Part shown: positions 1 to 36,881 of the stretch, in pieces | Numbering within the stretch: position 1 is the stretch's first letter | Layout: each line of letters begins with the position of its first letter | Assembly (NCBI GenBank): GCA_002897715.1 | Contig: BDUA01000040.1 | Coordinates: 1,142-65,141 of the forward strand | Length of the DNA: 64,000 bases | Source of the DNA: a bacterium BMS3Abin01 | GTDB taxonomy: Bacteria > Actinomycetota > Thermoleophilia > BMS3ABIN01 | Direction: 5' to 3' | Made by a program: the position numbers and the translations under genes | Notes under the pieces: generated by a model | What the model was told of the DNA's origin: nothing | What the model saw: the letters and a program-made list of their open reading frames with translations, nothing else | Database searches by the model: none

Positions 1-966
1 CGCTATGAAGGGGATGATGTTCTGCGCTATCAGGGCGCCCTCGACGATGGGGGCCTTGGCACCCAGGCTGATGGTGGCGCCGCGCTCCTTGCCCGGGGAA
101 AGCGCCTTGGGCATGCGGGCGATGCAGTGCATGCACTTGACGCAGTCGCTGTCATCTATCTCGATATCGTTCTCATCGGCGGTGATGCAGCCGGTGGGGC
201 ACATATCGACAACATGGTCCTTGATGTTGAAGCCGTTCTTCATGTACTCGGCATAGGCATCCTTGTCAATCTGGATCTCGTCCTTCCAGATGCCGATGAT
301 GGCCATGTCGGAACGGGCCTGGGAAGCCACACAGTCATTGGGGCAGCCCGACATCTTGATCTTGAACTTGTAGTTGAACATGGGACGGTGCAGCTCGTCC
401 TGGTAAGCCTGGGTGAGGTTATAGCAGAGGTCCAGCGTGTCGTAGCAGGCCCATTCGCAACGCGCCGGGCCGATGCAGCAACTGGGCGTCCGCATGTCCG
501 AACCGGAGCCGCCCAGGTCCCAGCCCTTCTGGGTGAGTGCCCGGAAGGTGGGCTCCAGCTCCTCGGTCCGGGTGCCCAGCAGCACCATGTCGCCGGTGGA
601 GCCGTGCATATTGGTCAGTCCGGAACCATGCTCGTCCCAGATGTCCATGATCTCGTTGAGTGCCTTGGAGGTATAGACCCATCCGGAGGTCTGGTTGACA
701 CGGACGGTGTGGAAATGCGAGACGCCCGGGAACTCTTCCGGCAGGGAGGAGTACCGGCCGATAACGCCACCGCCGTAGCCCAGCACGCCCACCAGACCGC
801 CATGCTTCCAGTAGCCTCTTTTGTCTTCGTAGGATTTTTCGAGCTGGCGGAGCAGATCGTGAGCCATCTCAGACCTGTCGGCGATACTCCTGATATCGCT
901 GACAAAGCTTGGCCACGGCCCCTTCTCCAACTCTTCCAAGAGTGGGATTTTCAGGTCATCTGCCAT
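1..966 (-). CDS. dsrA: dissimilatory sulfite reductase alpha subunit DsrA (N-terminal 322 codons; 3' end lies beyond the window start)
   Basis: Absent from the ORF track because there is no stop codon in the window. My minus-strand translation from the ATG at 966 gives [27 protein letters not shown]...[24 protein letters not shown]...[15 protein letters not shown]...CPTGCI...CVKCMHC. AAGGAG lies about 8 nt upstream. The [14 protein letters not shown] and GYWKHGG motifs are DsrA hallmarks from memory. The plus-strand ORF 127..1032 is its antisense shadow. Confidence 0.85.
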
Positions 967-1046
967 TTCGTGTTCTCCTTTTCCTTTGCTTGTATTTCGT
1001 TTAGCCTCGCGCCTGCGGGCTTAATAACATGACGGTGTGCAGGTAT

Positions 1047-2333
1047 TTAAGCCGGGGCCTCCGCCTCCGCCGAACCTGCGACGATATTGGTGTCCCCCTC
1101 CGCCACTTCTCCGCTCTCCTCTATCAGCAGATCCTCCGGGGGCTTGGGCTTGATCAGCTTGGCCTCCTGGGGCAGCAACGGCAGCCACTTGATCAGCAAC
1201 AGGTACGCGAGGGCCACGAAAGCGATCACGCCGATATACTGAACCCAGGCGGTGAACATCGGGAAATAGTTGATGGTGGCGCCGTCGCCATAGGCGGCGC
1301 TGGAAAACTCGTATCCGGGCAGCAGAGGGATATGCAGGAACTGGCCCGGCAGGATGAACAGGATCCTCTCGCCGACGATGCCGAAAACGTGCAGCCCCGA
1401 CGCGAACAGGATCCATCCCAGCCGCGACCTGGTCCTGGGATACAGCAGGATGAAGATCGGTGAAAGAAAGCCGATCAGATACAGCTGTATCCAGAACACG
1501 TAGGTGAAGAAGCTGCCGCTGAACAGCACATATTTCTCGCCTTCATAATGCTCCGGTGCGTACATGTGAATCAGGTGCTCGATGCTGACGATGAACATGA
1601 CGAACATGATCAGGCCGAGCATCACCCGGCTGAGCTGCAGGAAGAAGCGCTTGTCGATCTTCCGGTGGGTAGCCTTGAAGCTGTAGTGCAGGATGATCAT
1701 CGCCAGCGCCGTACCCGAGGAGAGGGCGGCGATGACGAAGGCCAGCGGCGTCAGCGAGGAGAAATACATTTCCCTGCCGTTGATCACACCGAATATGAAG
1801 CCGGTGCCGGAATGGACGAAGATAGCGGTGCATACCGCGGCGATAGCCAGAACCCGTGACCATTTCTCGCTGTTCTTCAACTGAGCCCACAGATATATGA
1901 TACCGACAGCGATGTAGGACGAATAGACGAACGCGTTCAGGGAGAGCATCGAGCGCGGATTGATGTTGTAGAACGGCAGGAGGATGCGGTCGGGGCGGCC
2001 CCAGGAGGAGATGAGCATCATCAGCGCCGCCGACATGAACAGTACCGAGTTCAGCGCCGCTACCCGCGACAGCACTTTATATTCGGTCTGCCCGAATATG
2101 GACCCCAGGGCGGAGATGAGCAGCGAGCCGGCGCTCAACCCCACGAACAGTACGAACAATACCTCCGAACCACCCCAGGTGATGGAGTGGTTAAGGCCGG
2201 TGATCCAGAAGCCCAGCTTGAACCTGATAGCCGTGGCTATGAACCAGCTGAAAACGAGCAGGCTGAGGATGACCACCGCCCAGTGATACTTACTTGATTT
2301 GCCCTCGATCGGTGCGAAAAAATATTTTGCCAC
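1047..2333 (-). CDS. dsrP: DsrP-like NrfD/PsrC-family integral membrane quinone-interacting subunit
   Basis: 428 aa, polytopic and hydrophobic throughout. It lies directly downstream of a Tat-signal Fe-S protein, which is the NrfC/NrfD-type pairing. GTG start with GAGG about 6 nt upstream. The call rests largely on context within dsrMKJOP. Confidence 0.7.
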   Translation of the reverse strand: MAKYFFAPIEGKSSKYHWAVVILSLLVFSWFIATAIRFKLGFWITGLNHSITWGGSEVLFVLFVGLSAGSLLISALGSIFGQTEYKVLSRVAALNSVLFMSAALMMLISSWGRPDRILLPFYNINPRSMLSLNAFVYSSYIAVGIIYLWAQLKNSEKWSRVLAIAAVCTAIFVHSGTGFIFGVINGREMYFSSLTPLAFVIAALSSGTALAMIILHYSFKATHRKIDKRFFLQLSRVMLGLIMFVMFIVSIEHLIHMYAPEHYEGEKYVLFSGSFFTYVFWIQLYLIGFLSPIFILLYPRTRSRLGWILFASGLHVFGIVGERILFILPGQFLHIPLLPGYEFSSAAYGDGATINYFPMFTAWVQYIGVIAFVALAYLLLIKWLPLLPQEAKLIKPKPPEDLLIEESGEVAEGDTNIVAGSAEAEAPA

Positions 2334-2366
2334 GTTAGCCTCGCAATCCTCTAGTCAGATTCATCT

Positions 2367-3131
2367 CTACAGTCCCAGATAGAATACGTTGGGCCCGACC
2401 CTCAGATTGGGCCTGAGTGCCTGCGCCGTACCCGGCTCAAGCAGCTGCGCGACCTCGGTCTCCGGATCGTTGCGGTCGCCGAAGGTGAGCGCGTTCTCCG
2501 GACAGTCCACCACGCACCGCGGCAGCTTGCCGTCATCGATGCGGTGGACGCAGAAAGTACACTTGGAGGCTACTCCCCGCATCAGCTTGGGAACCTTGCG
2601 GTTGGTCCACTGGTCGTCCGGGGTATCCTTGAATATCATGAACCTGACCCGGTAGGGACAGGCGATCACGCAGTACCGGCAACCGATACAGCGGTGCTCA
2701 TCGATCATCACCAGGCCGTCGGGCCGGATGAAGGAGGCCTTGGTGGGACAGACGTGGGTGCATGGGGGCTTATCGCACATCATGCACATGACCGGCAGTG
2801 ACAGAGCCTTGTTGTCCACCCCGGAGAGCTCCTTTTTGGCCTCGATTATGCGCAGCCAGTACGGGTCAAACCTTGAAAGCTTGCCGGGAAAGCGGGGAAG
2901 GTTGTTCTCATCCGCGCAGGCATCCTCGCAAATGGTGCAATCCGGCGAACACTTGCTCACGTCGGCCACCATCGTCCAGCTGACGTCCGTCGCCGCCGAT
3001 AACTCCTTGCCGCTCGATGCCAGACCTGACGGCGCAAATATCTGTGAGGCGGCGGGAATCGTCACGCCGGCGGCTGCGATCAGCCCGCCCATCTTCAAGA
3101 AAGTTCTTCTATCCAATCGGTCATTCCCCAT
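2367..3131 (-). CDS. dsrO: DsrO-like periplasmic 4Fe-4S ferredoxin (Tat signal)
   Basis: Twin-arginine motif DRRTFLKMGG. Several CxxCxxCxxxCP-type clusters (CIGCRYCVIACP, CTFCVHR...CVVDCP, CTICEDAC). The track start at 3230 overlaps dsrJ. The ATG at 3131 (MGNDRLDRRTFL) with an upstream AAAGGAAG is the likelier start. Confidence 0.75.
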   Translation of the reverse strand: MGNDRLDRRTFLKMGGLIAAAGVTIPAASQIFAPSGLASSGKELSAATDVSWTMVADVSKCSPDCTICEDACADENNLPRFPGKLSRFDPYWLRIIEAKKELSGVDNKALSLPVMCMMCDKPPCTHVCPTKASFIRPDGLVMIDEHRCIGCRYCVIACPYRVRFMIFKDTPDDQWTNRKVPKLMRGVASKCTFCVHRIDDGKLPRCVVDCPENALTFGDRNDPETEVAQLLEPGTAQALRPNLRVGPNVFYLGL

Positions 3132-3181
3132 AGCCAGAGCCCTACTTCCTTTGGTCTTTGTTTGACATCCGCTCCATGTCC

Positions 3182-3583
3182 CTACATACCCTCGGGTTTC
3201 TTCAAGCCCGGCTGTTCCGTCGAATGACAACCACCGGTCCCGGTGGAGCCGCCGAAGCAGCCCGGTTCTACCGTGTTATATTCATGGCATTTCTCGCAGA
3301 ATTTCTTGTATTCGTGGCAGGTGAAGCACTCCTTGATGCTGTCCTTGTCGGTGCGTTCACCGTGCCTGACCGCCCGCGTCCGTTCGTCCTTGAGCAGGTC
3401 CATGTGGTTGACCCGCATGTAATCCACATCACGGACGCAGCGGCTTCCCGCGTCAGCCTTGATGCCCGGATCGAGGTCCGGCTTGGTGGGCGTGTTGCCC
3501 CAGTCGCCGCTGGCGGCGCTAACGATGAACGGCGACAACAGAACCAACGTAAAAATGATGAGTGCTGCTACAGCTCTTCTCAT
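3182..3583 (-). CDS. dsrJ: DsrJ-like small membrane-anchored c-type cytochrome
   Basis: 133 aa with an N-terminal signal/anchor (AALIIFTLVLLSPFIVSAAS). Heme motifs CFTCH and CEKCH, plus C-x9-CH (CFGGSTGTGGCH). Its position between dsrK and dsrO fits DsrJ. Confidence 0.65.
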   Translation of the reverse strand: MRRAVAALIIFTLVLLSPFIVSAASGDWGNTPTKPDLDPGIKADAGSRCVRDVDYMRVNHMDLLKDERTRAVRHGERTDKDSIKECFTCHEYKKFCEKCHEYNTVEPGCFGGSTGTGGCHSTEQPGLKKPEGM

Positions 3584-5169
3584 TCCTTAGCTCCCAACTC
3601 GATTGCCTTGGCGACAAGCTGGTGGATACCCCCGACTTCGATCATTGGTATCCCGTATTTGGGGAAGACCTTGGTGAACTGTGCCTTGCAGATGGCACAT
3701 ATGAGGGCGAAGAAATTGGCCCCGTTCTCTTCCTTGATCGCATGGTAAGCCTGCATCCGCGGCATGGCCCCCTGGACACGGACATCGAGGATCTCGTCCG
3801 ACAGTAGTCCGCCGCCGCCGCCGCAGCAGAAGGTCTTCTCCTTGATGGTATCGGAATCCATCTCCACATAGCGGTTGCAGGCGGCATTGATCAGCGCCCG
3901 CGGTATCTCGAACTGTCCGCCGGGACGGTCACCCATGCGCGTGGCGCGGGCTACGTTGCATGAATCGTGGAAAGTGGGTATGACATCGTCGTTGGCCGAC
4001 TTGTCGAGCTTGATGGCGCCGCGCTCCACCAGGTCCAGGGTGTATTCACAGATATGCTGCGGCCGGGGATATTCCAGCTTGAGCCCCAGGCTGTTGTCCA
4101 GCGGCCCGATCATGGTGTTCCAGAAAGCGTAGGCGATGCGCCAGGCGTGGCCGCATTCGCCGACGATAAGGCGCTTGGGCTTGAGCTCCTCGATGGCTTT
4201 CCTGATGCGCATGGCTGCCTTCTGCATGTGCTCGTAACTGCCGATGAACATGCCGAAGTTGCCGGCCTCGGAGGCGGTGGAGCTGAGGGTCCAGCTGATG
4301 CCCGCCTGGTGGAAGACTTTGGCGTAGCCGATGAGGGACTCTATATGAGGCGTCGCGAAGAAATCCGCCGAAGGAGTGATCAGCAGCACCTCGGCCCCCA
4401 CCTGGTCTACGGGAAGCTTGACGGCGACGCCGTCCTCCTCCTGGATATCCTCCTCGGTGGACTCCATGGTCGCCTTGAGCGCCTTGGGGTTCATGCCCAG
4501 GTTGTTGCCGATCTCGTGCAGCTTTACCAGGACGGTGTTGACGTACTTCTGGCCGATACCGATGCTGTCCATGATCTCGCGGGCCGCCATGGAGATCTCG
4601 GCGGTGTCGATGCCATAAGGGCAGAACACCGAGCAGCGCCGGCACTGGGAGCACTGGTGGAAGTAGGTGTACCATTCGCCCAGCAGCTCCAGGTCCAGTT
4701 TGGCGGCGCCGGCCAGGGAACCGAAGATCTTTCCCTCGGTGGTGAAATATTTCTTATAAACCTTGCGAAGCAGGTCGGCCCGGGCCACGGGCATGTTCTT
4801 GGGGTCTTTGGATCCGAGGAAGAACTGACACTTATCGGTACAGGAACCGCAGCGGACACAGATGTCCAGATATACCTGGAGTGACTTGTACTTGGTCAGC
4901 AGCTCGCCCAGTTTCTTGACAGCCGCTTCCTCCCAGTTGTCCACCAGGCGCCCCGGGAAGCCCATGGCCTCCATGGTCTCCGGCTTGGCGGCGTGGCATT
5001 TGGATTTGGCCATCGCCCCCTTTACCAGATGGGGTATCTGGATATCGCCCGTAAGTTCGGGGGCCTTGACGTCTGCAGGCTTGAGCGAAGGCTCCTTGGC
5101 CCCGGTGACAATGTCCTGGTCGGTTAAAACTTCTTCCTGTTCTGCAGCTGTATCTGCCGTTTCTGCCAT
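3580..5169 (-). CDS. dsrK: DsrK, HdrD-like catalytic Fe-S subunit with CCG domains
   Basis: Two ferredoxin-type motifs (CVRCGSCTDKCQF, CSQCRRCSVFCPYG) and a CCG-type C-terminus (FCCGGGGG, FHDSCN). Likely start is the ATG at 5169 (MAETADT) preceded by AAAGGAAACGAG. The track start at 5235 is an upstream extension. Confidence 0.8.
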   Translation of the reverse strand: MAETADTAAEQEEVLTDQDIVTGAKEPSLKPADVKAPELTGDIQIPHLVKGAMAKSKCHAAKPETMEAMGFPGRLVDNWEEAAVKKLGELLTKYKSLQVYLDICVRCGSCTDKCQFFLGSKDPKNMPVARADLLRKVYKKYFTTEGKIFGSLAGAAKLDLELLGEWYTYFHQCSQCRRCSVFCPYGIDTAEISMAAREIMDSIGIGQKYVNTVLVKLHEIGNNLGMNPKALKATMESTEEDIQEEDGVAVKLPVDQVGAEVLLITPSADFFATPHIESLIGYAKVFHQAGISWTLSSTASEAGNFGMFIGSYEHMQKAAMRIRKAIEELKPKRLIVGECGHAWRIAYAFWNTMIGPLDNSLGLKLEYPRPQHICEYTLDLVERGAIKLDKSANDDVIPTFHDSCNVARATRMGDRPGGQFEIPRALINAACNRYVEMDSDTIKEKTFCCGGGGGLLSDEILDVRVQGAMPRMQAYHAIKEENGANFFALICAICKAQFTKVFPKYGIPMIEVGGIHQLVAKAIELGAKE

Positions 5170-5266
5170 CTCGTTTCCTTTCACAGTCCTGAAGAACCGC
5201 TGCCCTTCTTTTTGCCGGCCGGTGGCGGTAAACAACCACCTGACCGGACTCCGGGGCTAAACAATA

Positions 5267-5292
5267 CCGCCGTTTGGCAATGCCCACGGCGG
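5267..5292 (-). terminator. hairpin CCGCCGT(12 nt)ACGGCGG followed on the minus strand by UAUUGUUUAG
   Basis: 7-bp GC stem with a U-rich tail. It sits in the roughly 229-nt dsrC-dsrK spacer and is the second of two tandem hairpins downstream of dsrC. Confidence 0.45.
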
Positions 5293-5354
5293 GTTAACAG
5301 TGACTTACAAGTGCCCCGCCTCACAAGCCGGTCATCGGGACCGGCCGATTGTTT

Positions 5355-5386
5355 CCGGCTCGGCCCGCGGCCGCGGGCCGAGCCGG
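5355..5386 (-). terminator. perfect 32-nt GC-rich palindrome immediately 3' of dsrC (stem-loop: terminator, attenuator or mRNA stabiliser)
   Basis: The sequence ccggctcggcccgcgg/ccgcgggccgagccgg is exactly self-complementary. It lies 13 nt after the dsrC stop. There is no clear U-tract. Confidence 0.45.
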
Positions 5387-5398
5387 AGAGATTCCTAT

Positions 5399-5731
5399 TT
5401 ACACACAGCCTGTCGGCTTGGGCAGGCCCGCGATCTTGCAAGCCTGGAGTGCCGGGCCGGCCGGATAGAGATCGTAGAGATAAGCGCTGTTGCCCTTCTC
5501 GGGGCCGAACATCTTCTTCATCTCCTTGATCAGGATCTTGATGGCCGGCGCGATGTTGTACTCCTGGTAGTAATCCCTCAGGAAGTTAACGACCTCCCAG
5601 TGTGCCTCGGTCATATCGATACCTTCCTGCTCGGCCATGTAGCCGGCGACACCTTCGTTCCACTCATCAAGATTTACCAGGTACCCGTCATCATCTGTCT
5701 CATAGGTCTTTCCATCTAATTCAAAGCTCAT
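5399..5731 (-). CDS. dsrC: DsrC (TusE/DsrC family, with both conserved C-terminal cysteines)
   Basis: 110 aa ending ...ACKIAGLPKPTGCV, the two-cysteine C-terminal arm of bona fide DsrC. The N-terminus (GKTYETDDDGYL..L.EW) is typical of the family. Confidence 0.9.
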   Translation of the reverse strand: MSFELDGKTYETDDDGYLVNLDEWNEGVAGYMAEQEGIDMTEAHWEVVNFLRDYYQEYNIAPAIKILIKEMKKMFGPEKGNSAYLYDLYPAGPALQACKIAGLPKPTGCV

Positions 5732-5779
5732 TCTGTCTCCTCCTTGTGGAAATAGTTGCTTGAGCCAAGTCTTTAGGTG

Positions 5780-6544
5780 TTACCCCTCATCCTGTGTCAT
5801 ATTCGAAGCTATCTCAATGTTCTCCGGAGCCTTGCCCCAGGGATTCACCCAGCGCCGGTCGCGCGGGTTATCGACCTGGTTGCGCGTCGGGCTGAAGAAG
5901 ACGCCACCGGAGTGCATCAGCTTGCTGAAGGGGAAATATATAAACAGCAGGAAAACCAGGGAAATATGGATAATGAACATCACCTCGGAAGGCATCTCCT
6001 GCGGGTTAAAGGAAACGATCCCCAAAATGAATTCCTTGACGGTCGTTAGATTGGTGCGCGAAAAATGCTTGATGATCAAGCCGCTGGAGGCGATCGCCGC
6101 CAGCAGTATCAGCAGCAGGTAGTCGTTCATCACCGAGATGAAGGCCGTGCGGTCCACGACCAGCCTCAGCACGAACAGCATGATAAGTCCGAACAGCATG
6201 ATAAGTCCGGCGTAGATCTCGAAGGTGGTGATGTAGGCGATCCAGCCGGGACCGTAAGCGAAGAAGAAACGGAAGTGCTTCAACAGGGCGAGAAACAGGC
6301 CGATATGGAACATGTAGCCGAACAGCCAGATGATGCGGTTGCTCTTCAGCAGGCTTTTGAAGACACCCACTTCCAGAATCATCCTGCCGACTACACCGCC
6401 GTCGCTGGTGGGAGCGGGGGTCTGATCTATCTTCAACGGGGCGGGGGTCTTGCCGAATTTCCAGATACGGTAGAGGAACCCGAGGATGAAGACAGCGATA
6501 GCAACATAAGCATAAATCACAAAGAAGATCGTCAATCCGCTCAT
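5780..6544 (-). CDS. dsrM: DsrM, NarI/HdrE-like membrane b-type cytochrome subunit
   Basis: 254 aa with about 5-6 TM helices. It is the first gene of the dsrM-C-K-J-O-P run. ATG with AAAGGGATG upstream. Confidence 0.8.
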   Translation of the reverse strand: MSGLTIFFVIYAYVAIAVFILGFLYRIWKFGKTPAPLKIDQTPAPTSDGGVVGRMILEVGVFKSLLKSNRIIWLFGYMFHIGLFLALLKHFRFFFAYGPGWIAYITTFEIYAGLIMLFGLIMLFVLRLVVDRTAFISVMNDYLLLILLAAIASSGLIIKHFSRTNLTTVKEFILGIVSFNPQEMPSEVMFIIHISLVFLLFIYFPFSKLMHSGGVFFSPTRNQVDNPRDRRWVNPWGKAPENIEIASNMTQDEG

Positions 6545-6733
6545 ATCACATCCCTTTGGTCATGAGTGTTCGCACTCTACGCTGATACCTGGAAAAAACC
6601 CGTAACAGGTATATACCCCCTGAAGTATTCGCAACGATAGCACGGTAAATCAGAAGCTGTCAAACAGACTGATAAGCCCCCATCGCTTTTGTTCCAAAAA
6701 ACAATACCTTAGTGGGTATTTAGGACAAGTGGA

Positions 6734-6763
6734 AATCTAACACCCTTTTTTATCGCTTGTCAA
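6734..6763 (-). promoter_or_regulatory. candidate sigma70-type promoter for the dsrM operon
   Basis: The minus strand reads TTGACA, then 18 nt, then (TGT)TAGATT, about 190 nt upstream of the dsrM ATG. A second TTGACA lies exactly 100 bp downstream (6658-6663). The AT-richer spacer runs 6545-6850. Confidence 0.35.
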
Positions 6764-6852
6764 TAGCTGCGAGGGGATAATCCCGGTTTTTTTTCAGAGG
6801 TCCGCCGGCGGCAGGGATCCGGGGCGTGGCGGCGGGCCGCCGGCAACCGTTG

Positions 6853-8211
6853 TCAGGCCCGTCCCATGCGGGACACCAGGTCCTCCGCCCACCGGGACGA
6901 ACCCAGACTGTGAAGGTGGGCATAGGAGGCCAGTACATTGCGGTGGATGATGCCGTCATGCCGTCCGTCGACACCGGTGCCGCGCAGTACCTCCCAGGCG
7001 AACTCCAGGTCGCCGGCACCGGTTATCTCCGAATAATGGAACTCGTGGCCCCTTACCTCGGTCCCGGGGGAGAACCAGCCGCCGTTGCCCGTGGCCTTCA
7101 GCCTCATATAACCGTGGCCCTGCGGCTTTTGATGCATGACGATATCGCAGGGCAGGGCGCCCACCATCTCCCGGGTCCTGTCCTGCCAGGTCATGCTGCG
7201 CGCCAGGTACATCAGGCCGCCACACTCGGCGTAGACCGGCATACCCGCCTCGATGGCCTCCCTTATCTCCCGGCGTAGCGGTTCGTTGCCCTGCAGCTCA
7301 TCCATGAACACCTCGGGAAAGCCGCCGCCGATATAGAGACCCTGCACGTCGGGGAGAGCACCGTCGGCCAGCGGGCTGAAGGGGACCAGCTGGGCACCGG
7401 CCCGGGTCAGCGCTTCCAGGTTTTCCGGATAATAGAAGGTGAAGGCCCGGTCGCGGGCGATGCCGATACGTACCCGGGCGTCTCCGGACCCGGCCGCCGG
7501 GAGCTCCATGTCCGGCAGCGGCGGCGCCGTGGCGGCGATCTGCCGCACCTTCTCCAGGTCCACATATCCGGCGATGGCCCGGCCGATGGCGTCGATGACA
7601 TCATCGGCGGCCAGATGCTCCTGCGCCGGCTCCAGGCCCAGGTGACGCATGATGATACCCATGTCTGAACGCCGGGGTATGGCGCCGGCGATGGCAATGT
7701 CCGTATATTCCTCCACCGCCGCCCGCAGCTTGGCCTCGTGGCGCGGACCGAAGACCTTGTTGAGGATGACGCCGGCGATGGGCACGTCCGGCTCGAACTG
7801 CTGGAAGCCCATCAGCAGGGGGGCGATGCTGCGGTTCATGCTCCTGGTGTCCACAATCAGTATCACCGGCGCCTTCAGCAGGCGCGCCATGTCGGAGGTG
7901 CTGCCGCGGCCGTCCACCTCCAGGCTGTCGTACAGGCCCATGTTGCCTTCAATGATACCCATGTCCGCCGTGGCGGCCGCTGTCTGGAAGGAAGTCATGA
8001 TGTTCTCCTCGCCCATCATGAACAGGTCCAGGTTGCGGCAGTCGCGCCCGGCGGCGGCGCTCAACCACATGGGATCGATGAAGTCCGGCCCTTTCTTGTA
8101 GGGCTGCACTGCCAGTCCCGAGATGCTGAGGGCACGGCACAGGCCGGTGCTGAGCGTAGTTTTGCCGGAACTCCGGTGAGGTCCGGATATCACTATCCTG
8201 GGAAAATTCAA
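6853..8211 (-). CDS. dsrN: cobyrinate a,c-diamide synthase homolog, probable siroheme amidase DsrN
   Basis: P-loop RIVISGPHRSSGKTT, KKGPDFIDP, and a C-terminal glutamine amidotransferase part (ECGGLMYL...HEFHYS), which is CobB/CbiA architecture. It sits next to dsr genes. The track start at 8382 overlaps rluD. A TTG at 8211 preceded by GGAGG (5-nt spacer) is the likelier start. Confidence 0.7.
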   Translation of the reverse strand: MNFPRIVISGPHRSSGKTTLSTGLCRALSISGLAVQPYKKGPDFIDPMWLSAAAGRDCRNLDLFMMGEENIMTSFQTAAATADMGIIEGNMGLYDSLEVDGRGSTSDMARLLKAPVILIVDTRSMNRSIAPLLMGFQQFEPDVPIAGVILNKVFGPRHEAKLRAAVEEYTDIAIAGAIPRRSDMGIIMRHLGLEPAQEHLAADDVIDAIGRAIAGYVDLEKVRQIAATAPPLPDMELPAAGSGDARVRIGIARDRAFTFYYPENLEALTRAGAQLVPFSPLADGALPDVQGLYIGGGFPEVFMDELQGNEPLRREIREAIEAGMPVYAECGGLMYLARSMTWQDRTREMVGALPCDIVMHQKPQGHGYMRLKATGNGGWFSPGTEVRGHEFHYSEITGAGDLEFAWEVLRGTGVDGRHDGIIHRNVLASYAHLHSLGSSRWAEDLVSRMGRA

Positions 8212-8302: not shown

Positions 8303-9277
8303 TCAGCCGGACCCCTGCTCCAGCCGGTCCAGTACCGACTGCAGGTCGTCCGGCAACGGCGACTGGACCTCGATAGTCTCACCGGTTTGGGGATGGCTGA
8401 AGGTCAGCCGCGTCGCGTGCAGGAACTGGCGGCCGATGCCCAGCCGGTCGCGCCGGCGGCTATAGGTCGTGTCCCCGGCCACCGGATGGCCGATGGCCTC
8501 CAGGTGGACCCTGATCTGGTGGGTGCGGCCGGTATCCAGCCTCACCTCCAGCAGAGAGAGCCCGGCTCCGGGCTCCTTCCGGCGGCCGCGGCCCGATCCG
8601 TCACCGGCCCAGCTCCGTATAACCCGGAAGTGGGTAACGGCCGCCCGGCCGGCTGTCCCCGCCACTGACATCCGTTGCCGGTTGGCGGCGTCCCGGCCCA
8701 CCGGGGCGTCGATGGTGCCCTCCCTGGTCTCGAAATATCCGTGGACCAGGGCGATGTAGGTACGCTCGATCTGGTGACGGCGCAGCATCTCCACCAGCAA
8801 CCGGTGGGTGGCGTCGTCTCGGGCCACTACCAGCAGGCCCGAGGTGTCCTTGTCCAGACGGTGGACGATACCCGGGCGGTGCGGGCTCTCGCCGCCCGCC
8901 ACCTGATGGGCCAGCAGCCCGTGAACCAGGGTGCCGTGGTCATGCCCCCGGCCCGGATGGGTGACGACCCCCGCCGGCTTGTCCACCACCAGCAGCCACC
9001 GGTCCTCGTAGGGAATGCTCAGACCCAGGTCCTCGGGCTGGAGGGAGAGTTCCTCCGGCGGCTCCATCACCGCCTCGATCTCCTCGCCCGGGCGGACCCT
9101 GTGCTTCTTGCTGCCGGCGACTCCGTCGACCAGCACGCGGCCGGCGGCAATCAGCCGCTGCGCCGCCGCGCGCGAGCCTATCTCCGGCACCGATGCCAGC
9201 AGTTTGTCCAGGCGGATCCCCTGCTCGTCGGCGCCGGCCTGGATGGTAATCCTGCTCTGTGGGGAAGCATCATCCAT
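8303..9277 (-). CDS. rluD: RluA-family 23S rRNA pseudouridine synthase (RluD-like) with N-terminal S4 domain
   Basis: HRLDKDTSGLLVVA catalytic motif and an S4-like N-terminus (RLDKLLA...SRAAAQRLI..G.V.V.G). Classical lspA-rluD adjacency. Confidence 0.85.
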   Translation of the reverse strand: MDDASPQSRITIQAGADEQGIRLDKLLASVPEIGSRAAAQRLIAAGRVLVDGVAGSKKHRVRPGEEIEAVMEPPEELSLQPEDLGLSIPYEDRWLLVVDKPAGVVTHPGRGHDHGTLVHGLLAHQVAGGESPHRPGIVHRLDKDTSGLLVVARDDATHRLLVEMLRRHQIERTYIALVHGYFETREGTIDAPVGRDAANRQRMSVAGTAGRAAVTHFRVIRSWAGDGSGRGRRKEPGAGLSLLEVRLDTGRTHQIRVHLEAIGHPVAGDTTYSRRRDRLGIGRQFLHATRLTFSHPQTGETIEVQSPLPDDLQSVLDRLEQGSG

Positions 9278-9301
9278 GGCAGAAGGCCGGTTCCACCCCC
9301 G

Positions 9302-9748
9302 TCAGTCCCCTTCACTCTCCTGCAGCCGCAGGCCTTTGGGAAAGAGATAACGCAGCAGTATCAGCCCCACCCCCATGGCGATAAAGATGTCCGCCATATT
9401 GAAGGCGGGCCAATGGGGGACGCGGATAAAGTCGGTCACGCTGCCCAGGCGCAGGCGGTCGATGAGGTTGCCCAGGCTGCCCGCCAGCAACAGCGCCATG
9501 GGCACCACCATCGGTTCGTTGTGCCGAACCACGGCGGCGGCAACCAGCAGCAGGAAAACGATGAAACCGCCGACGATGAGGATAATGCCGTCGTGCCCGT
9601 TGAACATGCCGAAGGCGATACCGTTGTTCTGTATGAGTTGCAGCCTGAACAGTGGCAGTACGGCGATGTTGTCGCCGTAACTCATGCTGTTGCGGATTAT
9701 CGCCTTGAACAGCTGATCCACAGCCAGGAGCGACAAGGTCCAGATCAC
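9302..9748 (-). CDS. lspA: lipoprotein signal peptidase II
   Basis: 148 aa, 4 TM helices, with motifs NNGIAFGM and GSLGNLIDRL..G.V.DF. Confidence 0.85.
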   Translation of the reverse strand: MIWTLSLLAVDQLFKAIIRNSMSYGDNIAVLPLFRLQLIQNNGIAFGMFNGHDGIILIVGGFIVFLLLVAAAVVRHNEPMVVPMALLLAGSLGNLIDRLRLGSVTDFIRVPHWPAFNMADIFIAMGVGLILLRYLFPKGLRLQESEGD

Positions 9749-9781
9749 GAGCCTACCGGTTGGGTTGAACAGATACTTCAG

Positions 9782-10147
9782 CTATCTCGTCTCCTGTTCA
9801 CGCTGGCAATCGATGCACCGCTCGACATAGGGGAGAAACTCCAGCCGCTCCGGCGATATGGGTTTACCGCAGGACTTGCAGATACCGTATTCTCCCTTCT
9901 GGAACTCCTTGATGGCCTCGTTGACCCGGGTCAGCAGCATGTTAACCTTCTCCTCCAGGGAAAGGTCCAGCTCACGATCCTGGGCCAGGGCCGCCAGCCC
10001 GGCGACACGGTCATCGTAGCTGAGCCCCGCCGTCAGTTCCTGTTCCGTCTCGTCCGTATCGCGCGCCAGACGCTCCAGGTCCTGTTCCAGCTTATCCCTG
10101 ACTTCGTGAAGTTTCTTGAGCAGTTTTTTAGATTCTTCCGGTTCCAT
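9782..10147 (-). CDS. DksA/TraR-family C4 zinc-finger protein
   Basis: Coiled-coil N-terminus plus C-terminal CKSCGKPI....RCIDCQ. Confidence 0.7.
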   Translation of the reverse strand: MEPEESKKLLKKLHEVRDKLEQDLERLARDTDETEQELTAGLSYDDRVAGLAALAQDRELDLSLEEKVNMLLTRVNEAIKEFQKGEYGICKSCGKPISPERLEFLPYVERCIDCQREQETR

Positions 10148-10178
10148 GTAAAAATGAAAACCCCCCGCGACAGTCCTG

Positions 10179-10508
10179 TTACTCTACGCGGAGGAATTTT
10201 TTCAACCTCTCTTCAGCGTCCGCTACCGGTAACCCGGCCAACAGGACTATTTTATCACGAGAGCGCTCACCGTGTCGCAACCGCACCCTGTTTTTGCTGA
10301 GACCCAGTTCGCGGGCCAGCAACTTCAGCAGGGCCTTGTTCGCCTTGCCCTCTACGGGAGGAGCCTGCAGGCGCACCCGCAACCGTCCATCCCGCCTCCC
10401 CATTATCTGGGATTTCTTCGCCCCGGGCACCGCCCTGACCGCCAGCAGAACACCCTCCGGCGACTCCGTCAGCAGCTTACCACTTGAAGTTTTTCTCGTC
10501 GGTGTCAA
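10179..10508 (-). CDS. yggU: DUF167 / YggU-family protein
   Basis: ...LAVRAVPGAKKSQI...LRVRLQAPPVEGKANKALLKLLA..LG..K..V.L..GERSRDK matches the YggU pattern. The TTG track start overlaps the divIVA end by 32 nt, so the true start may be a little downstream. Confidence 0.7.
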   Translation of the reverse strand: MTPTRKTSSGKLLTESPEGVLLAVRAVPGAKKSQIMGRRDGRLRVRLQAPPVEGKANKALLKLLARELGLSKNRVRLRHGERSRDKIVLLAGLPVADAEERLKKFLRVE

Positions 10509-11202
10509 TCTCTACATCGGCGAAAGGGTCGTCTTCGTCACCGGTGCCTCCGCCGTGGAGGGCAGGAAAGCTGACCTCTTCCGCTTCCGCTTCCATGCCG
10601 CCATCAACCGTATCCGTTGCCTCGGCGGCATCGCCGCCGGCCAGCTCCGTCGATACCGCCTGGTCAATACCCATACCCTCATCCGCCGTTTCTTTCACGG
10701 CGTCAGCTGTTCCGGCCCCGGACTCCATACCCTCGATTTCGACATCTTCGAGCACCGAATCGTCGTCCTGGTCGAGGACGTTCATATAGCTCTCCAGCAG
10801 GGACTTGAGCTGGTAGCGCAGGTCTTCGTGTCTCTGCTTGAGGGACTGCACCGAACGCTGGATCTTCTGCCTCTCCGCGTAGGAGTCGTTGATGATGCTG
10901 CGGGATTTAAGCTCGGCGTCACGCAGGATGAGGTCCGCCTCCTTCTTGGCGTTGACCTTCAACTCCTCGGCCTGCTCCTGGGCGGAGATCAGCGTCTTCT
11001 GCAACGTCTCCTCGATATTGCGGTACTGCTCTATCTTCTCCTCCAGCGCCTCCAGCCGGTCCTGGTAGTCGATGTTCTTGTTGAACAAGCGCTCGAACTC
11101 CTCGACTATCTCATCGAGGTACTCATCCACCTCCAGGTCTTTGTATCCCCGCATGGACCGGCTGAACTCCTTGTGCCTGATATCCAACGGTGTGATTTTC
11201 AT
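10477..11202 (-). CDS. divIVA: DivIVA-domain cell division / polarity protein
   Basis: N-terminus MKITPLDIRHKEFSRSMRGYKDLEVDEYLDEI is the canonical DivIVA lipid-binding domain. It is followed by a coiled coil and an acidic tail. Confidence 0.85.
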   Translation of the reverse strand: MKITPLDIRHKEFSRSMRGYKDLEVDEYLDEIVEEFERLFNKNIDYQDRLEALEEKIEQYRNIEETLQKTLISAQEQAEELKVNAKKEADLILRDAELKSRSIINDSYAERQKIQRSVQSLKQRHEDLRYQLKSLLESYMNVLDQDDDSVLEDVEIEGMESGAGTADAVKETADEGMGIDQAVSTELAGGDAAEATDTVDGGMEAEAEEVSFPALHGGGTGDEDDPFADVEIDTDEKNFKW

Positions 11203-11227
11203 CCCACTGTCCTCCCTGTTTTATGAT

Positions 11228-11494
11228 TTACAAGGCGCTTACGACGAAACTCTGTATTATCCCCAATACCAGCAGCCCGACGAACGGACTGAAATCGATT
11301 GGCCCCGCCAGCGGTATGAACCGCCGGAACAAACCCAGGTAGGGCTCGGTCACATCATGCACGTACCGGAACAGGATCAGCAACGTCCTGTTGGATGGTA
11401 TCCCGGTCCAGCTGAATACGATCCTGATGATGATGAATACATAGTAGGTATAAAAAAGCGCATTGACAAAACTGCGTGCGTCGAATCCCGTCAT
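11228..11494 (-). CDS. yggT: YggT-family membrane protein
   Basis: 88 aa, two TM helices, and the conserved position between sepF/proC and divIVA. Confidence 0.75.
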   Translation of the reverse strand: MTGFDARSFVNALFYTYYVFIIIRIVFSWTGIPSNRTLLILFRYVHDVTEPYLGLFRRFIPLAGPIDFSPFVGLLVLGIIQSFVVSAL

Positions 11495-11496
11495 GT

Positions 11497-12303
11497 CTAG
11501 CCGAGCTCGATGGCGCGGTCGACCGTTACCTGCACCGAATCGATGATGGCGGACCTGATGCCGTCCCTCTCCAGCTGCGAGATACCGGCGGCGGTGGTTC
11601 CCGCCGGCGAGGTGACGATATGCCTCAACTCGCTGGGCGACAGCCCCGCCTCCACCAGCAGGGCGGCCGTACCCGCCAGCATGGAATATGTCAGCTCCCG
11701 CGCCACACCTCCCGGCAGCCCCGCCATGACGCCGGCGTCGACGAAGGCGTCGACGATGACGGCCATGAACCCGGGTCCGCTGCCGGCGATGGCCGTCGCC
11801 GGGGCGAACAGCTTCTCCGTCAGGGGCACGACGCGCCCCAGGTGGCTGAACAGCTCGTACACCTGCTCCTCCGTCTCCGGGTCCACCTTGCTGCCGACGG
11901 CAAAACAGATGGTGCCGGCGCAGACCTCGACGGCCACGTTGGGCATCATGCGGAAGACGGGGACGTCCTCGGAGAAAAGCGCCTCGATGAAAGCAATGGT
12001 ACGGCCGGCGGCCACCGAGGCCAGGATCTTCCCCCTGCCGAAAAAGGACGCGATGCCGGCTATGGCCGCCTCGACATCGTTGGGTTTGACCGCCAGCAGC
12101 ACCAGGTCGGATCCCTCCGCCAGTTCGGCGTTGCCACCGGCGACCCTGACGCCCGTTTCCTTGCTGAGCTTCTCAGCCGCCTCGGGGTAAACGTCGGCAA
12201 CGATGATGCGGGAGGCCATGGCAGAATCATGTTTCAGCCAGCCCTTCACGAAGGCCGAGCCCATGTTGCCGCAGCCGATCAGGCCGATTTTATCGATCGT
12301 CAT
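11497..12303 (-). CDS. proC: pyrroline-5-carboxylate reductase
   Basis: IGLIGCGNMG Rossmann motif and a C-terminal SPAGTT motif. Its ATG overlaps the sepF stop. The yggS-sepF-proC-yggT linkage is a known conserved neighbourhood. Confidence 0.9.
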   Translation of the reverse strand: MTIDKIGLIGCGNMGSAFVKGWLKHDSAMASRIIVADVYPEAAEKLSKETGVRVAGGNAELAEGSDLVLLAVKPNDVEAAIAGIASFFGRGKILASVAAGRTIAFIEALFSEDVPVFRMMPNVAVEVCAGTICFAVGSKVDPETEEQVYELFSHLGRVVPLTEKLFAPATAIAGSGPGFMAVIVDAFVDAGVMAGLPGGVARELTYSMLAGTAALLVEAGLSPSELRHIVTSPAGTTAAGISQLERDGIRSAIIDSVQVTVDRAIELG

Positions 12304-12818
12304 GACTGGTTGAAGAAGCCTTTCTCCATCAGCCGCGCCCGCTCCTCAGCGGAGACTTCGACGTTGCGCGGCGTTAGCAGGAAGACCTTGTCCGCGACCC
12401 GCTGCATGCCACCGTCAAGGGCATAGGTCAGGCCGCTGGAGAAATCGATGAAACGCTTGGCCAGATCGGTGTCGGCGTTCTGCAGATTGAGGATAACCGG
12501 CACATCCGCCTTGAACTTGTCCGCCACCTGCTGGGCGTCGTTGAAGCTCCGGGGCAGCACCAGATGCACCCTGATATTGGCCGGCGACGCCGATCTCAGC
12601 GGCTTGATGCGCGAGACCTTCTTGTCCTCGGGATAGATGTCGTCGTAATCCACCCGCTGCTTGCGGGACGACCGGCTTATCTTGCGGACATTGGGCCTCT
12701 CGCTGTATGAGGCTTCCAGGGAACGATGCGCCGCCATATGTTCATCTTCGACGTCATATTCCTCCTCGTCCAACCTGTCTTCCGCTAGTCCGAAATATAC
12801 AAGTGTCTTTTGCCACAT
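12300..12818 (-). CDS. sepF: cell division protein SepF
   Basis: MWQKTLVYFGLAED N-terminal membrane-targeting helix and a C-terminal FtsZ-binding domain (...PVILNL...RFIDF..G..YAL.G....V...VFLL.P). The ATG at 12818 is preferred over the track start at 12842. Confidence 0.85.
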   Translation of the reverse strand: MWQKTLVYFGLAEDRLDEEEYDVEDEHMAAHRSLEASYSERPNVRKISRSSRKQRVDYDDIYPEDKKVSRIKPLRSASPANIRVHLVLPRSFNDAQQVADKFKADVPVILNLQNADTDLAKRFIDFSSGLTYALDGGMQRVADKVFLLTPRNVEVSAEERARLMEKGFFNQS

Positions 12819-12907
12819 ATTACTTATGGCGACCACCTCCAAACGTGAAGAGTTGAATCACTTTTCTACCTGCGGTTTGCTATCCCTTTATCCTGCCCTG
12901 TCGATTA

Positions 12908-13615
12908 TCAGTTATACAGGATGCTGCCCACACGAATAATGGTCGCACCCTCCTCCACCGCCACAGTGTAATCGTTGCTGGTTCCCATGGAAAGTTGTGT
13001 GAAACGGTATCTTCCCTGCCATTCACGGGTGAGCTTTTCAGCCATTTCGCGTAGGGCCGCGAAGGCGGGGCGGGATTTTTCGGGGTCTGCCACCAGCGGC
13101 GGCATAGTCATGAGGCCGGTGAAATTAACCATGGAAAAACGGTCAGCCTCCTCAAGGAAGCGGTTAACCTCGCCTGGAATGATACCATATTTGCTCGCCT
13201 CTTCGCCAATGTTGACCTGCAGTAGCACATTTGATGGTATTTCCGCCCGCTGCTGGATCTCCCGGACCACGGACAGGGAATCCAGGGAATGGATCAGCCG
13301 CACCCGGGGCAGCACCTGTCTCACCTTGTTGCTCTGCAGGTGGCCGATGAAATCCCAGGTGAAGCGCTCGCCGTAACGGTCGTGCTTGGCCACCAGGTCC
13401 TGGGCGCGATTCTCGCCGACGAGAGAGACCCCGGCGCCGGCCAGGGCCTCCAGGCCCTCCACCGCCACATACTTGATCGCAGCCAGCAGCTCCACCCCAC
13501 CGGGGTCACGGCCGGCGCGGCGACAGGCCCGCATCATCTCCGCCTCTATACGCTCCCTGTTCTCCCTGACAGCGGCGGCGTCCAGGTCGGTCAGCTGCTG
13601 CCTCACACGATCCAC
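12908..13615 (-). CDS. yggS: YggS-family pyridoxal-phosphate homeostasis protein
   Basis: ...LLAAIKYV..., HFIGHLQSNK-like (FIGHLQSNK), LSMGTSNDY and IRVGS motifs. Confidence 0.85.
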   Translation of the reverse strand: MDRVRQQLTDLDAAAVRENRERIEAEMMRACRRAGRDPGGVELLAAIKYVAVEGLEALAGAGVSLVGENRAQDLVAKHDRYGERFTWDFIGHLQSNKVRQVLPRVRLIHSLDSLSVVREIQQRAEIPSNVLLQVNIGEEASKYGIIPGEVNRFLEEADRFSMVNFTGLMTMPPLVADPEKSRPAFAALREMAEKLTREWQGRYRFTQLSMGTSNDYTVAVEEGATIIRVGSILYN

Positions 13616-14433
13616 GCTATCGCCCCCTGCCTGCCCGTTCCATCGCCGTCGCGGCGATGGGAGAAGAACCTCCCGTCGCAGCAGGTGCAGATATCCAGGA
13701 CGTGGACGCGTTCGGCGGTCAGGCCGGCGGCGACCAGTTCGTCCCCGGCGGCGGCCGGCAGGTCGAGGCGGTCCCCCGGGAGAACGGCGTCACCGAAGCG
13801 GCCGGCGAAGCCGGCGGCTGTCTCACCGTCCACCTGGTAGCAGCAGGAGTGGATACAGGGCCCGATGGCGGCGGTCATGGCCGCCGGGTCCGCCCCCCTG
13901 GCCACCATGGTGTCCACCGTGTTGCCGATAACGCCGGCCGCCAGCCCGCGCCGGCCGGCATGCACGACGGCGATGACCGGGGCACCGTCACCGCGGCCGA
14001 TGAGCACCAGCGGCAGGCAGTCAGCGTACTGCAACTGCAGCGGTGCCTGACGGATACCGGTAATCAGCGCGTCGCAGGGGTCGAAGGGGCTATCCGCCCG
14101 CCACTTGGCGCCGGCGCCGATGTCCAGTTCGTTGTCCAGCAGGCAGACCACCCCGGTATGCTGCTGGCGCGGGGAGGTGATGGTTGAAGCCTTGTGGCCC
14201 AGGGCCCGCCCCAGGAGCTGGCGGTTCTTGTGTACCTGACCGGCCTCATCGCCGACGTTGAACCCCAGGTTGAGCGAGTCGCAGGGAGGCCTGCTGACGC
14301 CGCCGTGCCGCCCGGAGAAATATACTTCCACGCCCGGCCCGGCCTTTTCAAATCGCCACAGCTCTATATTTATTAGCTCCACCCGGGTGAAAGCAGCATC
14401 CGCGCCCGACCGTCCATCCTGCTCATCAGTCAT
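13603..14433 (-). CDS. pgeF: PgeF/YfiH-family (laccase-domain) peptidoglycan editing factor
   Basis: ...LNLGFNVGD..., QQHT..V, CDALIT, ADCLP, HAGRRG and IGPCI.SCCYQV motifs. Conserved position just after ftsZ. Confidence 0.8.
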   Translation of the reverse strand: MTDEQDGRSGADAAFTRVELINIELWRFEKAGPGVEVYFSGRHGGVSRPPCDSLNLGFNVGDEAGQVHKNRQLLGRALGHKASTITSPRQQHTGVVCLLDNELDIGAGAKWRADSPFDPCDALITGIRQAPLQLQYADCLPLVLIGRGDGAPVIAVVHAGRRGLAAGVIGNTVDTMVARGADPAAMTAAIGPCIHSCCYQVDGETAAGFAGRFGDAVLPGDRLDLPAAAGDELVAAGLTAERVHVLDICTCCDGRFFSHRRDGDGTGRQGAIAWIV

Positions 14434-14464
14434 GTGATCCGTCCTTGTCTTTCGCCGATAGGAA

Positions 14465-14488
14465 AGGGCAGGCCTCGAGGCCTGCCCT
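14465..14488 (-). terminator. perfect 24-nt palindrome AGGGCAGGCC-TCGA-GGCCTGCCCT between ftsZ and pgeF
   Basis: 10-bp GC stem with a 4-nt loop, 42 nt after the ftsZ stop. The pyrimidine tail (TTCCT) is weak. Confidence 0.55.
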
Positions 14489-14529
14489 AATAAACCAAAT
14501 CTCTCCCGTCCCGGTCTCTGCCGGCCGGT

Positions 14530-36397: not shown

Positions 36398-36401
36398 ACC
36401 C

Positions 36402-36881
36402 TTACCGCTTCTCCGCCGGCGACGCCGAACCGGCCGCCGGTCCCTGGTGGTGGTCATCATCCCGCGCGCCGCCGCCGGCCAGGTTCAGCCTGCCCAGCGG
36501 CCGGATCGTCTCGGTGAACCCGGTCACCGTCTCAGCCCAGCGCGCCCCTTCCGAAGCGCTGATCCAGGTATAGCGGAAGCGCTCCGGCTCGATGCCGTAC
36601 ACAGCCATCATGCGGCTGAGCAGCTCCAGGCGCCGGTGCGCATAATAGTTGCCCTCGTTGTAGTGACAGTCACCGGGGTGGCAACCGCTCACCAGCACGC
36701 CGTCAGCGCCCTCCTGGAACGCTTTCAGCACCAGCAGGGGGTTGACCCGCCCCGTACAGGGCAGCCGCACGATGCGCATCTCCGCCGGCTGCGCCATGCG
36801 CGAGGTCCCGGCCATGTCGGCGCCGGCGTATGAACACCAGTTGCAGAGGAACCCGACCAGTTTGATATCGCCGCCGCTCAC
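36402..36881 (-). CDS. flxD: MvhD-type (methyl-viologen-reducing hydrogenase delta) 2Fe-2S protein, FlxD-like
   Basis: GFLCNWCSYAGAD....R........R.V.LPCTGRV.....L.AF..GADGVLV.GCH.GDCHY is the MvhD signature. Confidence 0.85.
   Translation of the reverse strand: MSGGDIKLVGFLCNWCSYAGADMAGTSRMAQPAEMRIVRLPCTGRVNPLLVLKAFQEGADGVLVSGCHPGDCHYNEGNYYAHRRLELLSRMMAVYGIEPERFRYTWISASEGARWAETVTGFTETIRPLGRLNLAGGGARDDDHHQGPAAGSASPAEKR

Follow-up and report, generated by a model that had tools for sequence, protein, structure and literature searches.

A dissimilatory dsr operon with a complete dsrMKJOP gene set in bacterium BMS3Abin01, a member of the Actinomycetota

Can a lineage of a Gram-positive phylum hold the complete DsrMKJOP membrane complex, with its outward-facing DsrJOP part, next to a dissimilatory sulfite reductase? 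The question is raised by the first 8,211 nucleotides of the window analyzed here (a 64-kb stretch of contig BDUA01000040.1, assembly GCA_002897715.1) from the uncultured bacterium BMS3Abin01, which originates from deep-sea massive sulfide deposits. An initial annotation of this DNA had described dsrN, dsrM-C-K-J-O-P and dsrA on one strand, adjoining a cell-division cluster, and had set this against the premise that Gram-positive sulfate reducers keep only DsrMK. That premise proves to be a tendency and not a rule: it is stated for many Bacillota and not for all Gram-positives (PMC10861901), the Gram-positive Moorella thermoacetica has dsrMKJOP, and actinobacterial DsrO has already been placed in a DsrO phylogeny (Neukirchen et al. 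2023, PMC10504309). The best explanation of the locus, held at a probability of about 0.8, is a chromosomal dsr operon of the actinobacterium BMS3Abin01 in which the full DsrMKJOP set is ancestral and retained and which is run reductively.

Coordinates are those of the window; every gene in its first 30 kb is on the minus strand. Genes were identified from their translations and from hidden Markov model (HMM) scans with NCBIfam and Pfam, scores being read against curated cut-offs. The choice of open reading frames (ORFs) was guided by GC content at third codon positions (GC3); two long antisense ORFs returned by greedy longest-ORF calling (8675-10300+ and 41695-44790+) were rejected as artefacts. 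The transcription order is dsrN-dsrM-dsrC-dsrK-dsrJ-dsrO-dsrP-dsrA, dsrA being cut at the window start (Table 1), and HMM, Pfam and motif evidence confirms each of these genes.

The window DsrA scores far higher with the DsrA model (461.7 bits) than with AsrC (47.7 bits) or NirB (29.9 bits), and the sirohaem/[4Fe-4S] cysteine motif CX5C...CX3C (CIGPARC and CPNDC) can be read in its translation. DsrK contains two CxxCxxCxxxC ferredoxin motifs, a CCG and a CxxC motif (residues 126, 195, 470 and 513); gene calls of 529 or 551 amino acids (aa) alternate on near-identical contigs, and dsrK overlaps dsrJ by 4 bases. The C-terminal arm of DsrC, CKIAGLPKPTGCV, has the CX10C spacing with the second cysteine in the penultimate position. 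DsrM matches Pfam Nitrate_red_gam and has five hydrophobic helices with NarI-type histidines (His80, 90, 193 and 211) in them; it is about 70 residues shorter than model NF038037, and its score of 168 bits falls under the cut-off of 300. DsrO is 254 aa long from MGNDRLDRRTFLK, a length also called on contigs L001-L005, and has the twin-arginine motif RRTFLK and four Fe-S motifs, three found by pattern search and the fourth (CTFC...CVVDCP) by reading. DsrN may be assigned as the sirohaem amidase by its operon context; copies 62-70% identical occupy the same position in other Actinomycetota loci.

The two remaining subunits are divergent. DsrJ has a hydrophobic N-terminal anchor (residues 4-22), and the DsrJ model is its only NCBIfam match. 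DsrP, encoded after dsrO, has about ten hydrophobic helices and is 61-63% identical to Actinomycetota copies and 21-22% identical to canonical DsrP. The HMM checks that had been proposed for DsrJ, DsrO and DsrP thus gave a mixed result: DsrO exceeds its cut-off of 200, at 233 bits, while DsrJ and DsrP each have their own model as best NCBIfam match at scores under the cut-offs (75 against 100 bits, and 80.9 against 350 bits). In PDB sequence searches the sole match of DsrP was ActC of ACIII (E 2e-05), and DsrJ and DsrK returned zero matches. Overall, the evidence supports a dissimilatory dsr locus, neither of the Asr type nor assimilatory, with a complete DsrMKJOP gene set.

The polyribonucleotide nucleotidyltransferase (PNPase) of the window is 100% identical to that of bacterium BMS3Abin01 at NCBI, and the next 30 or so matches, at 78-87% identity, are Thermoleophilia or Actinobacteria bacterium metagenome-assembled genomes (MAGs) wherever they are named. 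GTDB r214 places GCA_002897715 in Actinomycetota; Thermoleophilia; o__BMS3ABIN01 (PMC10591310 Table S1). DsrA tells the same story among the matches listed from GTDB species representatives: the 12 best (75-90% identity) are all Actinomycetota MAGs, including Dive96_bin2.271, SURF_19, Ca. Aquicultor primus and several 'Thermoleophilia', and past the Actinomycetota identity falls to 65% or less, in Nitrospirota and others. The host is therefore supported as a lineage of a Gram-positive phylum and not a classical diderm sulfate-reducing clade. Because both the PNPase and the nearest DsrA sequences are actinobacterial and AsrC scores only 47.7 bits, neither of the two outcomes that the initial annotation had named as fatal to its claim, a host inside such a clade or an Asr-type or assimilatory enzyme, was found; marker placement by pnp puts the host in order BMS3ABIN01.

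An exact-protein look-up of DsrP returned six contigs (L001-L006) from several assemblies, 99.85-100% identical in DNA to the window (ENA ERZ1742235 and ERZ1742237; two separate assemblies of run DRR093003 of PRJDB5792; SRR7787893; GCA_011050945.1). On one of them (L003, 99.98% identity), the full 402-aa DsrA is followed 85 bp on by 338 residues of a partial DsrB, so that the search for dsrB beyond the window start, proposed initially, was successful. dsrD is not visible for BMS3Abin01 because every near-identical contig breaks in or just after dsrA/dsrB. In the loci of relatives, dsrD and then dsrL lie 3' of dsrB in 11 of 12 cases, the twelfth (L016, 2 kb) being too short to show them; both genes were read directly in L007. 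The unit of the lineage is, from these sequences, a compact 12-gene operon, dsrNMCKJOPABDL, and by homology with the sequenced relatives the operon of BMS3Abin01 probably continues with dsrD-dsrL. Table S1 of Diao et al. 2023 scores dsrD and dsrL as present in MAG GCA_002897715, together with sat, aprAB and qmoBC (PMC10591310); sat, aprAB and qmoABC were the genes that the initial annotation had proposed to look for in the genome.

In the proposed mechanism, DsrAB, with sirohaem amidated by DsrN, would reduce sulfite onto DsrC, and the DsrC trisulfide would in turn be reduced at the membrane by DsrMK(JOP), with electrons from menaquinol. The N-terminal anchor of DsrJ, together with DsrP, would hold the outward-facing DsrJ/DsrO module in place, so that the module may need no periplasmic partners. 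A reductive direction, in sulfate or sulfite respiration, is moderately favored because of dsrD in the relatives and of sat, aprAB and qmoBC scored in the MAG, although the latter genes are common to oxidizers too. The Flx-Hdr-like cluster and menaquinone genes of the window, described below, were also counted toward this direction. DsrA is closest to reductive-type structures (Archaeoglobus fulgidus 3MM5, its best PDB match, 530 bits; Desulfovibrio-type, 471-488 bits) in a comparison that included no oxidative-type structure, and among the matches listed its nearest relatives outside the actinobacterial clade are reductive-type lineages.

The pathway could instead be oxidative, disproportionating or switchable, and a Dsr system serving sulfur or sulfide oxidation or disproportionation in place of sulfate or sulfite respiration is the strongest of the alternatives, though an unlikely one. 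The closest PDB chain of DsrC is the oxidative-type DsrC of Allochromatium vinosum (1YX3, 153.7 bits), well ahead of A. fulgidus (108 bits) and of Desulfovibrio/Desulfomicrobium-type chains (76-96 bits). In the DsrO phylogeny of Neukirchen 2023 (PMC10504309) the actinobacterial sequences take a basal position relative to the oxidative type, and the same work describes oxidative-type DsrMKJOP syntenic with reductive dsrAB and dsrD. dsrE and dsrH are scored in GCA_002897715 (Diao Table S1, PMC10591310), dsrL follows dsrD in the relatives, the sister MAG SURF-19 has both reductive and oxidative dsrAB, and Anantharaman 2018 listed Actinobacteria under 'reduction, or oxidation, or both'. It is the A. 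vinosum-like DsrC, the basal DsrO and the scored dsrE/dsrH that open this possibility. Against it stand the affinities of DsrA, the absence of dsrEFH from the operon, and the dsrD of the relatives, an allosteric activator typical of reducers. The Dsr system looks chimeric, as others have noted for Actinobacteria.

The first two haem sites of DsrJ are CFTCH and CEKCH; the third is CFGGSTGTGGCH (CX9CH), where the alignment has CxxCH in canonical DsrJ. The c-type haem motifs reported initially are thus present, with the correction that two and not three of them, the number expected of a trihaem DsrJ, are CxxCH. In canonical DsrJ from about 60 other loci the third site is a CxxCH of the CWDCH type, whereas that of actinobacterial DsrJ aligns as C-x6-CH, with CX9CH in the window. 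When 5.8 billion proteins were searched with a DsrJ profile, 57 clusters reached 143 bits or more, with CX6CH at the third site in 48, CX9CH in 6, CX7CH in 1, CX12CH in 1 and the canonical CX2CH in 1 (P0056); every full-length three-motif match at 100 bits or less carries CX2CH. In an exhaustive HMMER pass, 1.84 billion representatives yielded 778 DsrJ homologues. Of the 150 that scored best, 138 carry three canonical CxxCH motifs and 6 carry CX6CH; five of these 6 belong to the BMS3ABIN01-lineage family. Across an alignment of 21 sequences, residues C109, G118, C119 and H120 do not vary. C49, which precedes the YMRxNH motif, is invariant in six full-length sequences, and a cysteine stands before the motif in 21/21 sequences of the larger alignment; this conserved cysteine is a proposed haem ligand. 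On a short contig (L090, 903-2010), a CX6CH-type DsrJ (P0222, CASADGGCH) is encoded immediately after a NarI-like gene, and dsrK is missing from between the two.

Extended haem c attachment motifs exist elsewhere, for example the CX15CH of MccA. The actinobacterial DsrJ resembles this type in having two cysteines more than two residues apart followed by histidine, in an otherwise canonical multihaem cytochrome c; it differs in its spacer of 6-12 residues, and no dedicated haem lyase gene was seen in the window. A full-text literature search for the CX6CH motif returned no cytochrome paper, only one on a metallothionein. The extended motif is proposed still to bind a haem, in which case it would lengthen the list of non-standard haem c attachment motifs.

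The sister genomes contain reduced versions of the locus. In L007, whose DsrA is 90% identical to that of the window, and in L011 and L013, dsrK is followed by a 96-108-aa DsrJ-like gene (here called J') and then by dsrA, with no dsrOP. J' encodes only two CxxCH motifs and lacks both the conserved cysteine and the third site. L087 has a stand-alone dsrM-dsrK-J' module that is not beside dsrAB. In Ca. Aquicultor primus (L010 9429-9920) and Yes70-03 (L009 9196-9480), a dsrM remnant abuts dsrA on its upstream side; its first 95 residues are 57-59% identical to the window DsrM and the rest is divergent, which points to a deletion in place that began inside dsrM and took out everything through dsrP. 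In the cases examined, the extended-motif DsrJ is accompanied by dsrOP in 8/8 and J' occurs without dsrOP in 4/4. Joint loss of the cysteine, the third haem site and DsrOP suggests that the three act as one functional unit. Full DsrMKJOP was probably ancestral in the actinobacterial lineage and has been retained in BMS3Abin01. A stronger proposal, that the BMS3ABIN01/Aquicultoria-type DsrJ is a new class whose third haem sits on CX6-12CH and was lost with the cysteine ligand and DsrOP in sister genomes, which would make this third haem the His/Cys haem that works with DsrOP, is offered only tentatively, the balance leaning against it.

These losses also bear on whether DsrJOP of BMS3Abin01 is a decaying relic, with DsrMK alone functional as in Bacillota sulfate reducers. 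Close relatives have indeed shed dsrOP and truncated dsrJ, or deleted the dsrM-through-dsrP segment, the third DsrJ haem motif is non-canonical, and DsrMK alone is enough in many organisms (PMC10861901). However, the window and no fewer than seven further genomes have intact dsrJ, dsrO and dsrP ORFs. Invariance of the Tat motif, Fe-S cysteines, cysteine ligand and C...GCH residues extends over about 57 clusters down to 42% identity, and DsrP is 61-63% conserved within the lineage. Because of this intactness, invariance and conservation, the genes fit purifying selection and not decay, and a relic is highly improbable.

The rluD-dsrN junction is present on both near-identical contigs that reach it (L001 and L002; ERZ1742235 and DRR093003) and is common to four other species (L008, L011, L012 and L015) at 45-81% protein identity. 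The order rluD-dsrN-M-C-K-J-O-P-A-B recurs in SURF_19 (L008), Kmv30 (L012) and GW3_30 (L015), the same rluD...dsrN neighborhood is seen in FK3.bin172 (L011), and the flanking housekeeping genes are 39-66% identical to those of the window. L014, L017 and GCA_902810715.1 (L088) have the same operon with rluD out of view. In neighbor-joining trees of DsrA, B, K, N, C and M, the actinobacterial sequences form a single clade each time, and the GC3 of the dsr genes (0.73-0.82) is like that of the rest of the window. A recent lateral acquisition of the operon or its dsrJOP part from a diderm, or a chimeric assembly, scarcely merits belief: dsrAB is transfer-prone, Actinomycetota are listed in the literature among taxa with multiple dsrAB transfers, and the GC content of the first 8 kb (0.58-0.60) is slightly under that of the adjoining division cluster (0.60-0.67), but the junction and gene order recur across samples or assemblies and in other species of the lineage, and all Dsr proteins group in a single actinobacterial clade. 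Moreover, DsrJ, DsrO and DsrP share no more than 21-38% identity with their counterparts in the other phyla sampled, GC3 is even throughout, and GC just as low is seen in further housekeeping stretches of the window. Misassembly or misbinning was rejected on the same recurrence of the junction. The sequences show that the operon, and its place beside rluD and the division cluster, have been conserved vertically.

Some points weigh against an ancestral, retained and reductive DsrMKJOP operon, in addition to the oxidative-leaning features of DsrC, DsrO and dsrE/dsrH. DsrJ, DsrM and DsrP score under curated equivalog cut-offs; haem attachment at the CX6-12CH site is a prediction; the neighbor-joining trees are crude, which weakens what the ancestral-state inference says on the order of events; no dsrD or dsrL of BMS3Abin01 itself was seen on the near-identical contigs; and the host is uncultured.

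The initial annotation had further described rluD-lspA...divIVA-yggT-proC-sepF-yggS-pgeF-ftsZ-ftsA next to the dsr genes, as an arrangement of the Actinomycetota/Bacillota type. Pfam and NCBIfam matches confirm these genes, on the same strand upstream of dsrN, and the ftsZ-pgeF-yggS-sepF-yggT-divIVA order agrees with that attribution. DivIVA and SepF indicate the lineage and not the envelope type, and do not prove a monoderm. No outer-membrane biogenesis gene (BamA, Lpt, Lpx) was seen among the window proteins scanned, which represent part of the ORFs of 64 kb and are not informative genome-wide. The monoderm/diderm distinction matters less mechanistically than was assumed initially, since with DsrJ membrane-anchored and DsrO docking on DsrP (PMC10861901) a single membrane can carry a working outward-facing module on its outer side. 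The window also contains both ftsA (15639-17057) and sepF (12300-12842), a Bacillota-like pair of FtsZ anchors in a deep Thermoleophilia-related order; to our knowledge most cultivated Actinobacteria are without ftsA.

Within the operon, the AT-rich dsrN-dsrM spacer is 308 bp long and includes two sigma-70-like matches (10/12 each, with an extended -10 TG), and the stem-loops after dsrC have no U-tract on the coding strand. The hairpins may act as a partial terminator or an mRNA stabilizer. Together, the spacer matches, the post-dsrC hairpins and the dsrK-dsrJ overlap suggest a separate promoter for dsrM-...-dsrB and differential expression of dsrC.

Table 1. Positions and identifying evidence of the dsr genes and associated features in the window, and of the J' genes in relatives
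Feature	Position	Strand	Evidence and remarks
dsrA	1..966	-	First 321 codons; TIGR02064 461.7 bits vs cut-off 392.85 despite truncation
dsrP	1047..2333	-	NrfD/PsrC-family integral membrane subunit, divergent; Pfam NrfD 145.9 bits
dsrO	2367..3131	-	Tat-exported Fe-S subunit; NF045797 233 bits vs cut-off 200
dsrJ	3182..3583	-	Membrane-anchored c-type cytochrome; NF038038 75 bits vs cut-off 100
dsrK	3580..5235 (alternative start 5169)	-	HdrD-like catalytic subunit; NF045796 554 bits vs cut-off 400
Two GC-rich stem-loops	5327..5389	-	Directly 3' of the dsrC stop codon; inverted repeats of 17 and 7 pairs
dsrC	5399..5731	-	TIGR03342 162.9 bits; between dsrM and dsrK
dsrM	5780..6544	-	NarI-like dihaem cytochrome b, short (254 aa); NF038037 167.7 bits vs cut-off 300
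AT-rich dsrN-dsrM spacer with two sigma-70-like promoter matches	6634..6763	-	Consensus matches only
dsrN	6853..8211	-	CobB family TIGR00379 494.7 bits; 452-aa gene call
Housekeeping block	8303..17802	-	rluD, lspA, dksA/traR-type zinc-finger gene, DUF167, divIVA, yggT, proC, sepF, yggS, pgeF, ftsZ, ftsA, ftsQ; Pfam/NCBIfam
J' genes (96-116 aa)	L007 846-1136; L011 ~9550-9873; L013 1369-1674; L087 8001-8351		After dsrK; dsrOP absent

Farther along the window are rpsO, pnp, ribF, truB, rbfA, infB, nusA and rimP. A seven-gene cluster on the minus strand (33595-40319) resembles hdrC-hdrB-hdrA-mvhD/flxD-flxC-flxB-flxA and encodes, in this order, an Fe-S protein, a CCG-domain protein, a 652-aa HdrA-like flavoprotein, an FlpD/MvhD protein, two Fe-S proteins and an FAD/NAD-binding AsrB/HydG-like protein. 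For the Flx-Hdr system of Desulfovibrio, a link of NADH to DsrC and ferredoxin reduction has been proposed. Next to this cluster, also on the minus strand (40430-43470), are futalosine-pathway menaquinone genes, with two CofH/MqnC-type radical SAM proteins flanking a VitK2_biosynth (MqnA/D) protein; these would supply the quinone used by DsrMKJOP. A 498-aa ORF upstream of rimP-nusA (58058-59554, minus strand) has coding-like GC3 and zero Pfam matches at E 1e-4. No tRNA genes and no Rfam families at the gathering threshold were found across the whole 64-kb window.

Much of this was on record. Diao et al. 2023 (PMC10591310) had listed the uncultured Thermoleophilia lineage that includes BMS3Abin01 among predicted sulfate reducers, and a mud-volcano study of 2026 (PMC13503563) cites order BMS3ABIN01 in the same sense. 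Thus, the initial interpretation stands as regards a full complex in a Gram-positive-phylum host and falls as regards novelty, and the headline of a dsr locus in an actinobacterium, being largely known, changes little. What looks new, to a modest extent, is the divergence of DsrJ and DsrP, the conservation of a CX6-12CH site, and the series of reduced operons within the lineage. With a full, a reduced (MK and dihaem J') and a deleted version of the locus at the same chromosomal position, the lineage offers a clean comparative handle on DsrJOP, the function of which has been called an enigma (PMC10861901).

The published inventory differs from the sequences in several genes. Table S1 of Diao et al. 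gives dsrC 0, dsrJ 0, dsrP 0 and dsrO 1 for GCA_002897715, and J 0, O 0 and P 0 for SURF-19 (PMC10591310). Contrary to these entries, BMS3Abin01 encodes dsrC, dsrJ and dsrP, and SURF-19 encodes dsrJ, dsrO and dsrP. Sub-threshold HMM scores and the low identity of DsrP to canonical copies are a plausible cause of the missed dsrJ and dsrP; thresholds do not explain dsrC, which scores well over its cut-off here. Inventories based on HMMs find too few DsrJ, DsrP and even DsrC proteins in the BMS3ABIN01 lineage, and claims of Gram-positive lineages without DsrJOP may therefore be in part threshold artefacts. Such details should be useful to those surveying or studying sulfur cycling.

Compared with DsrMKJOP of Desulfovibrio and Archaeoglobus, a menaquinol:DsrC-trisulfide reductase (PMC10861901), the BMS3Abin01 system has all five subunits and the K-J-O-P order in common, and is alike in the CCG site of DsrK, the four-His pattern of DsrM, the Tat and Fe-S motifs of DsrO, the ten helices of DsrP, and the N-terminal anchor and the cysteine before YMRxNH of DsrJ. 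It differs in having dsrC between dsrM and dsrK, in lacking dsrT, in the head-to-tail fusion of the operon with dsrN and dsrAB, in its CX9CH third site and distant DsrP, and in its actinobacterial host. The oxidative system of A. vinosum has the most similar DsrC and a full DsrMKJOP, and in the literature the actinobacterial DsrO lies at the base of the oxidative type; in contrast to it, BMS3Abin01 has no dsrEFH in its operon, dsrD occurs in its relatives, and the nearest outside DsrA among the matches listed is reductive-type.

The Bacillota sulfate reducers of the Desulfotomaculum and Desulforudis type, with DsrMK only, resemble BMS3Abin01 in their Gram-positive-type phylum and division genes, and the sister genomes L007, L011 and L013 are likewise without DsrOP, whereas BMS3Abin01 keeps DsrJOP. 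A dihaem DsrJ-like gene still follows dsrK in the reduced actinobacterial variants, a feature for which we know of no description in Bacillota. The cluster of Moorella thermoacetica (dsrAB, dsrD, dsrT and dsrMKJOP) is alike in presenting a full DsrMKJOP in a Gram-positive phylum, though a different one (PMC10504309).

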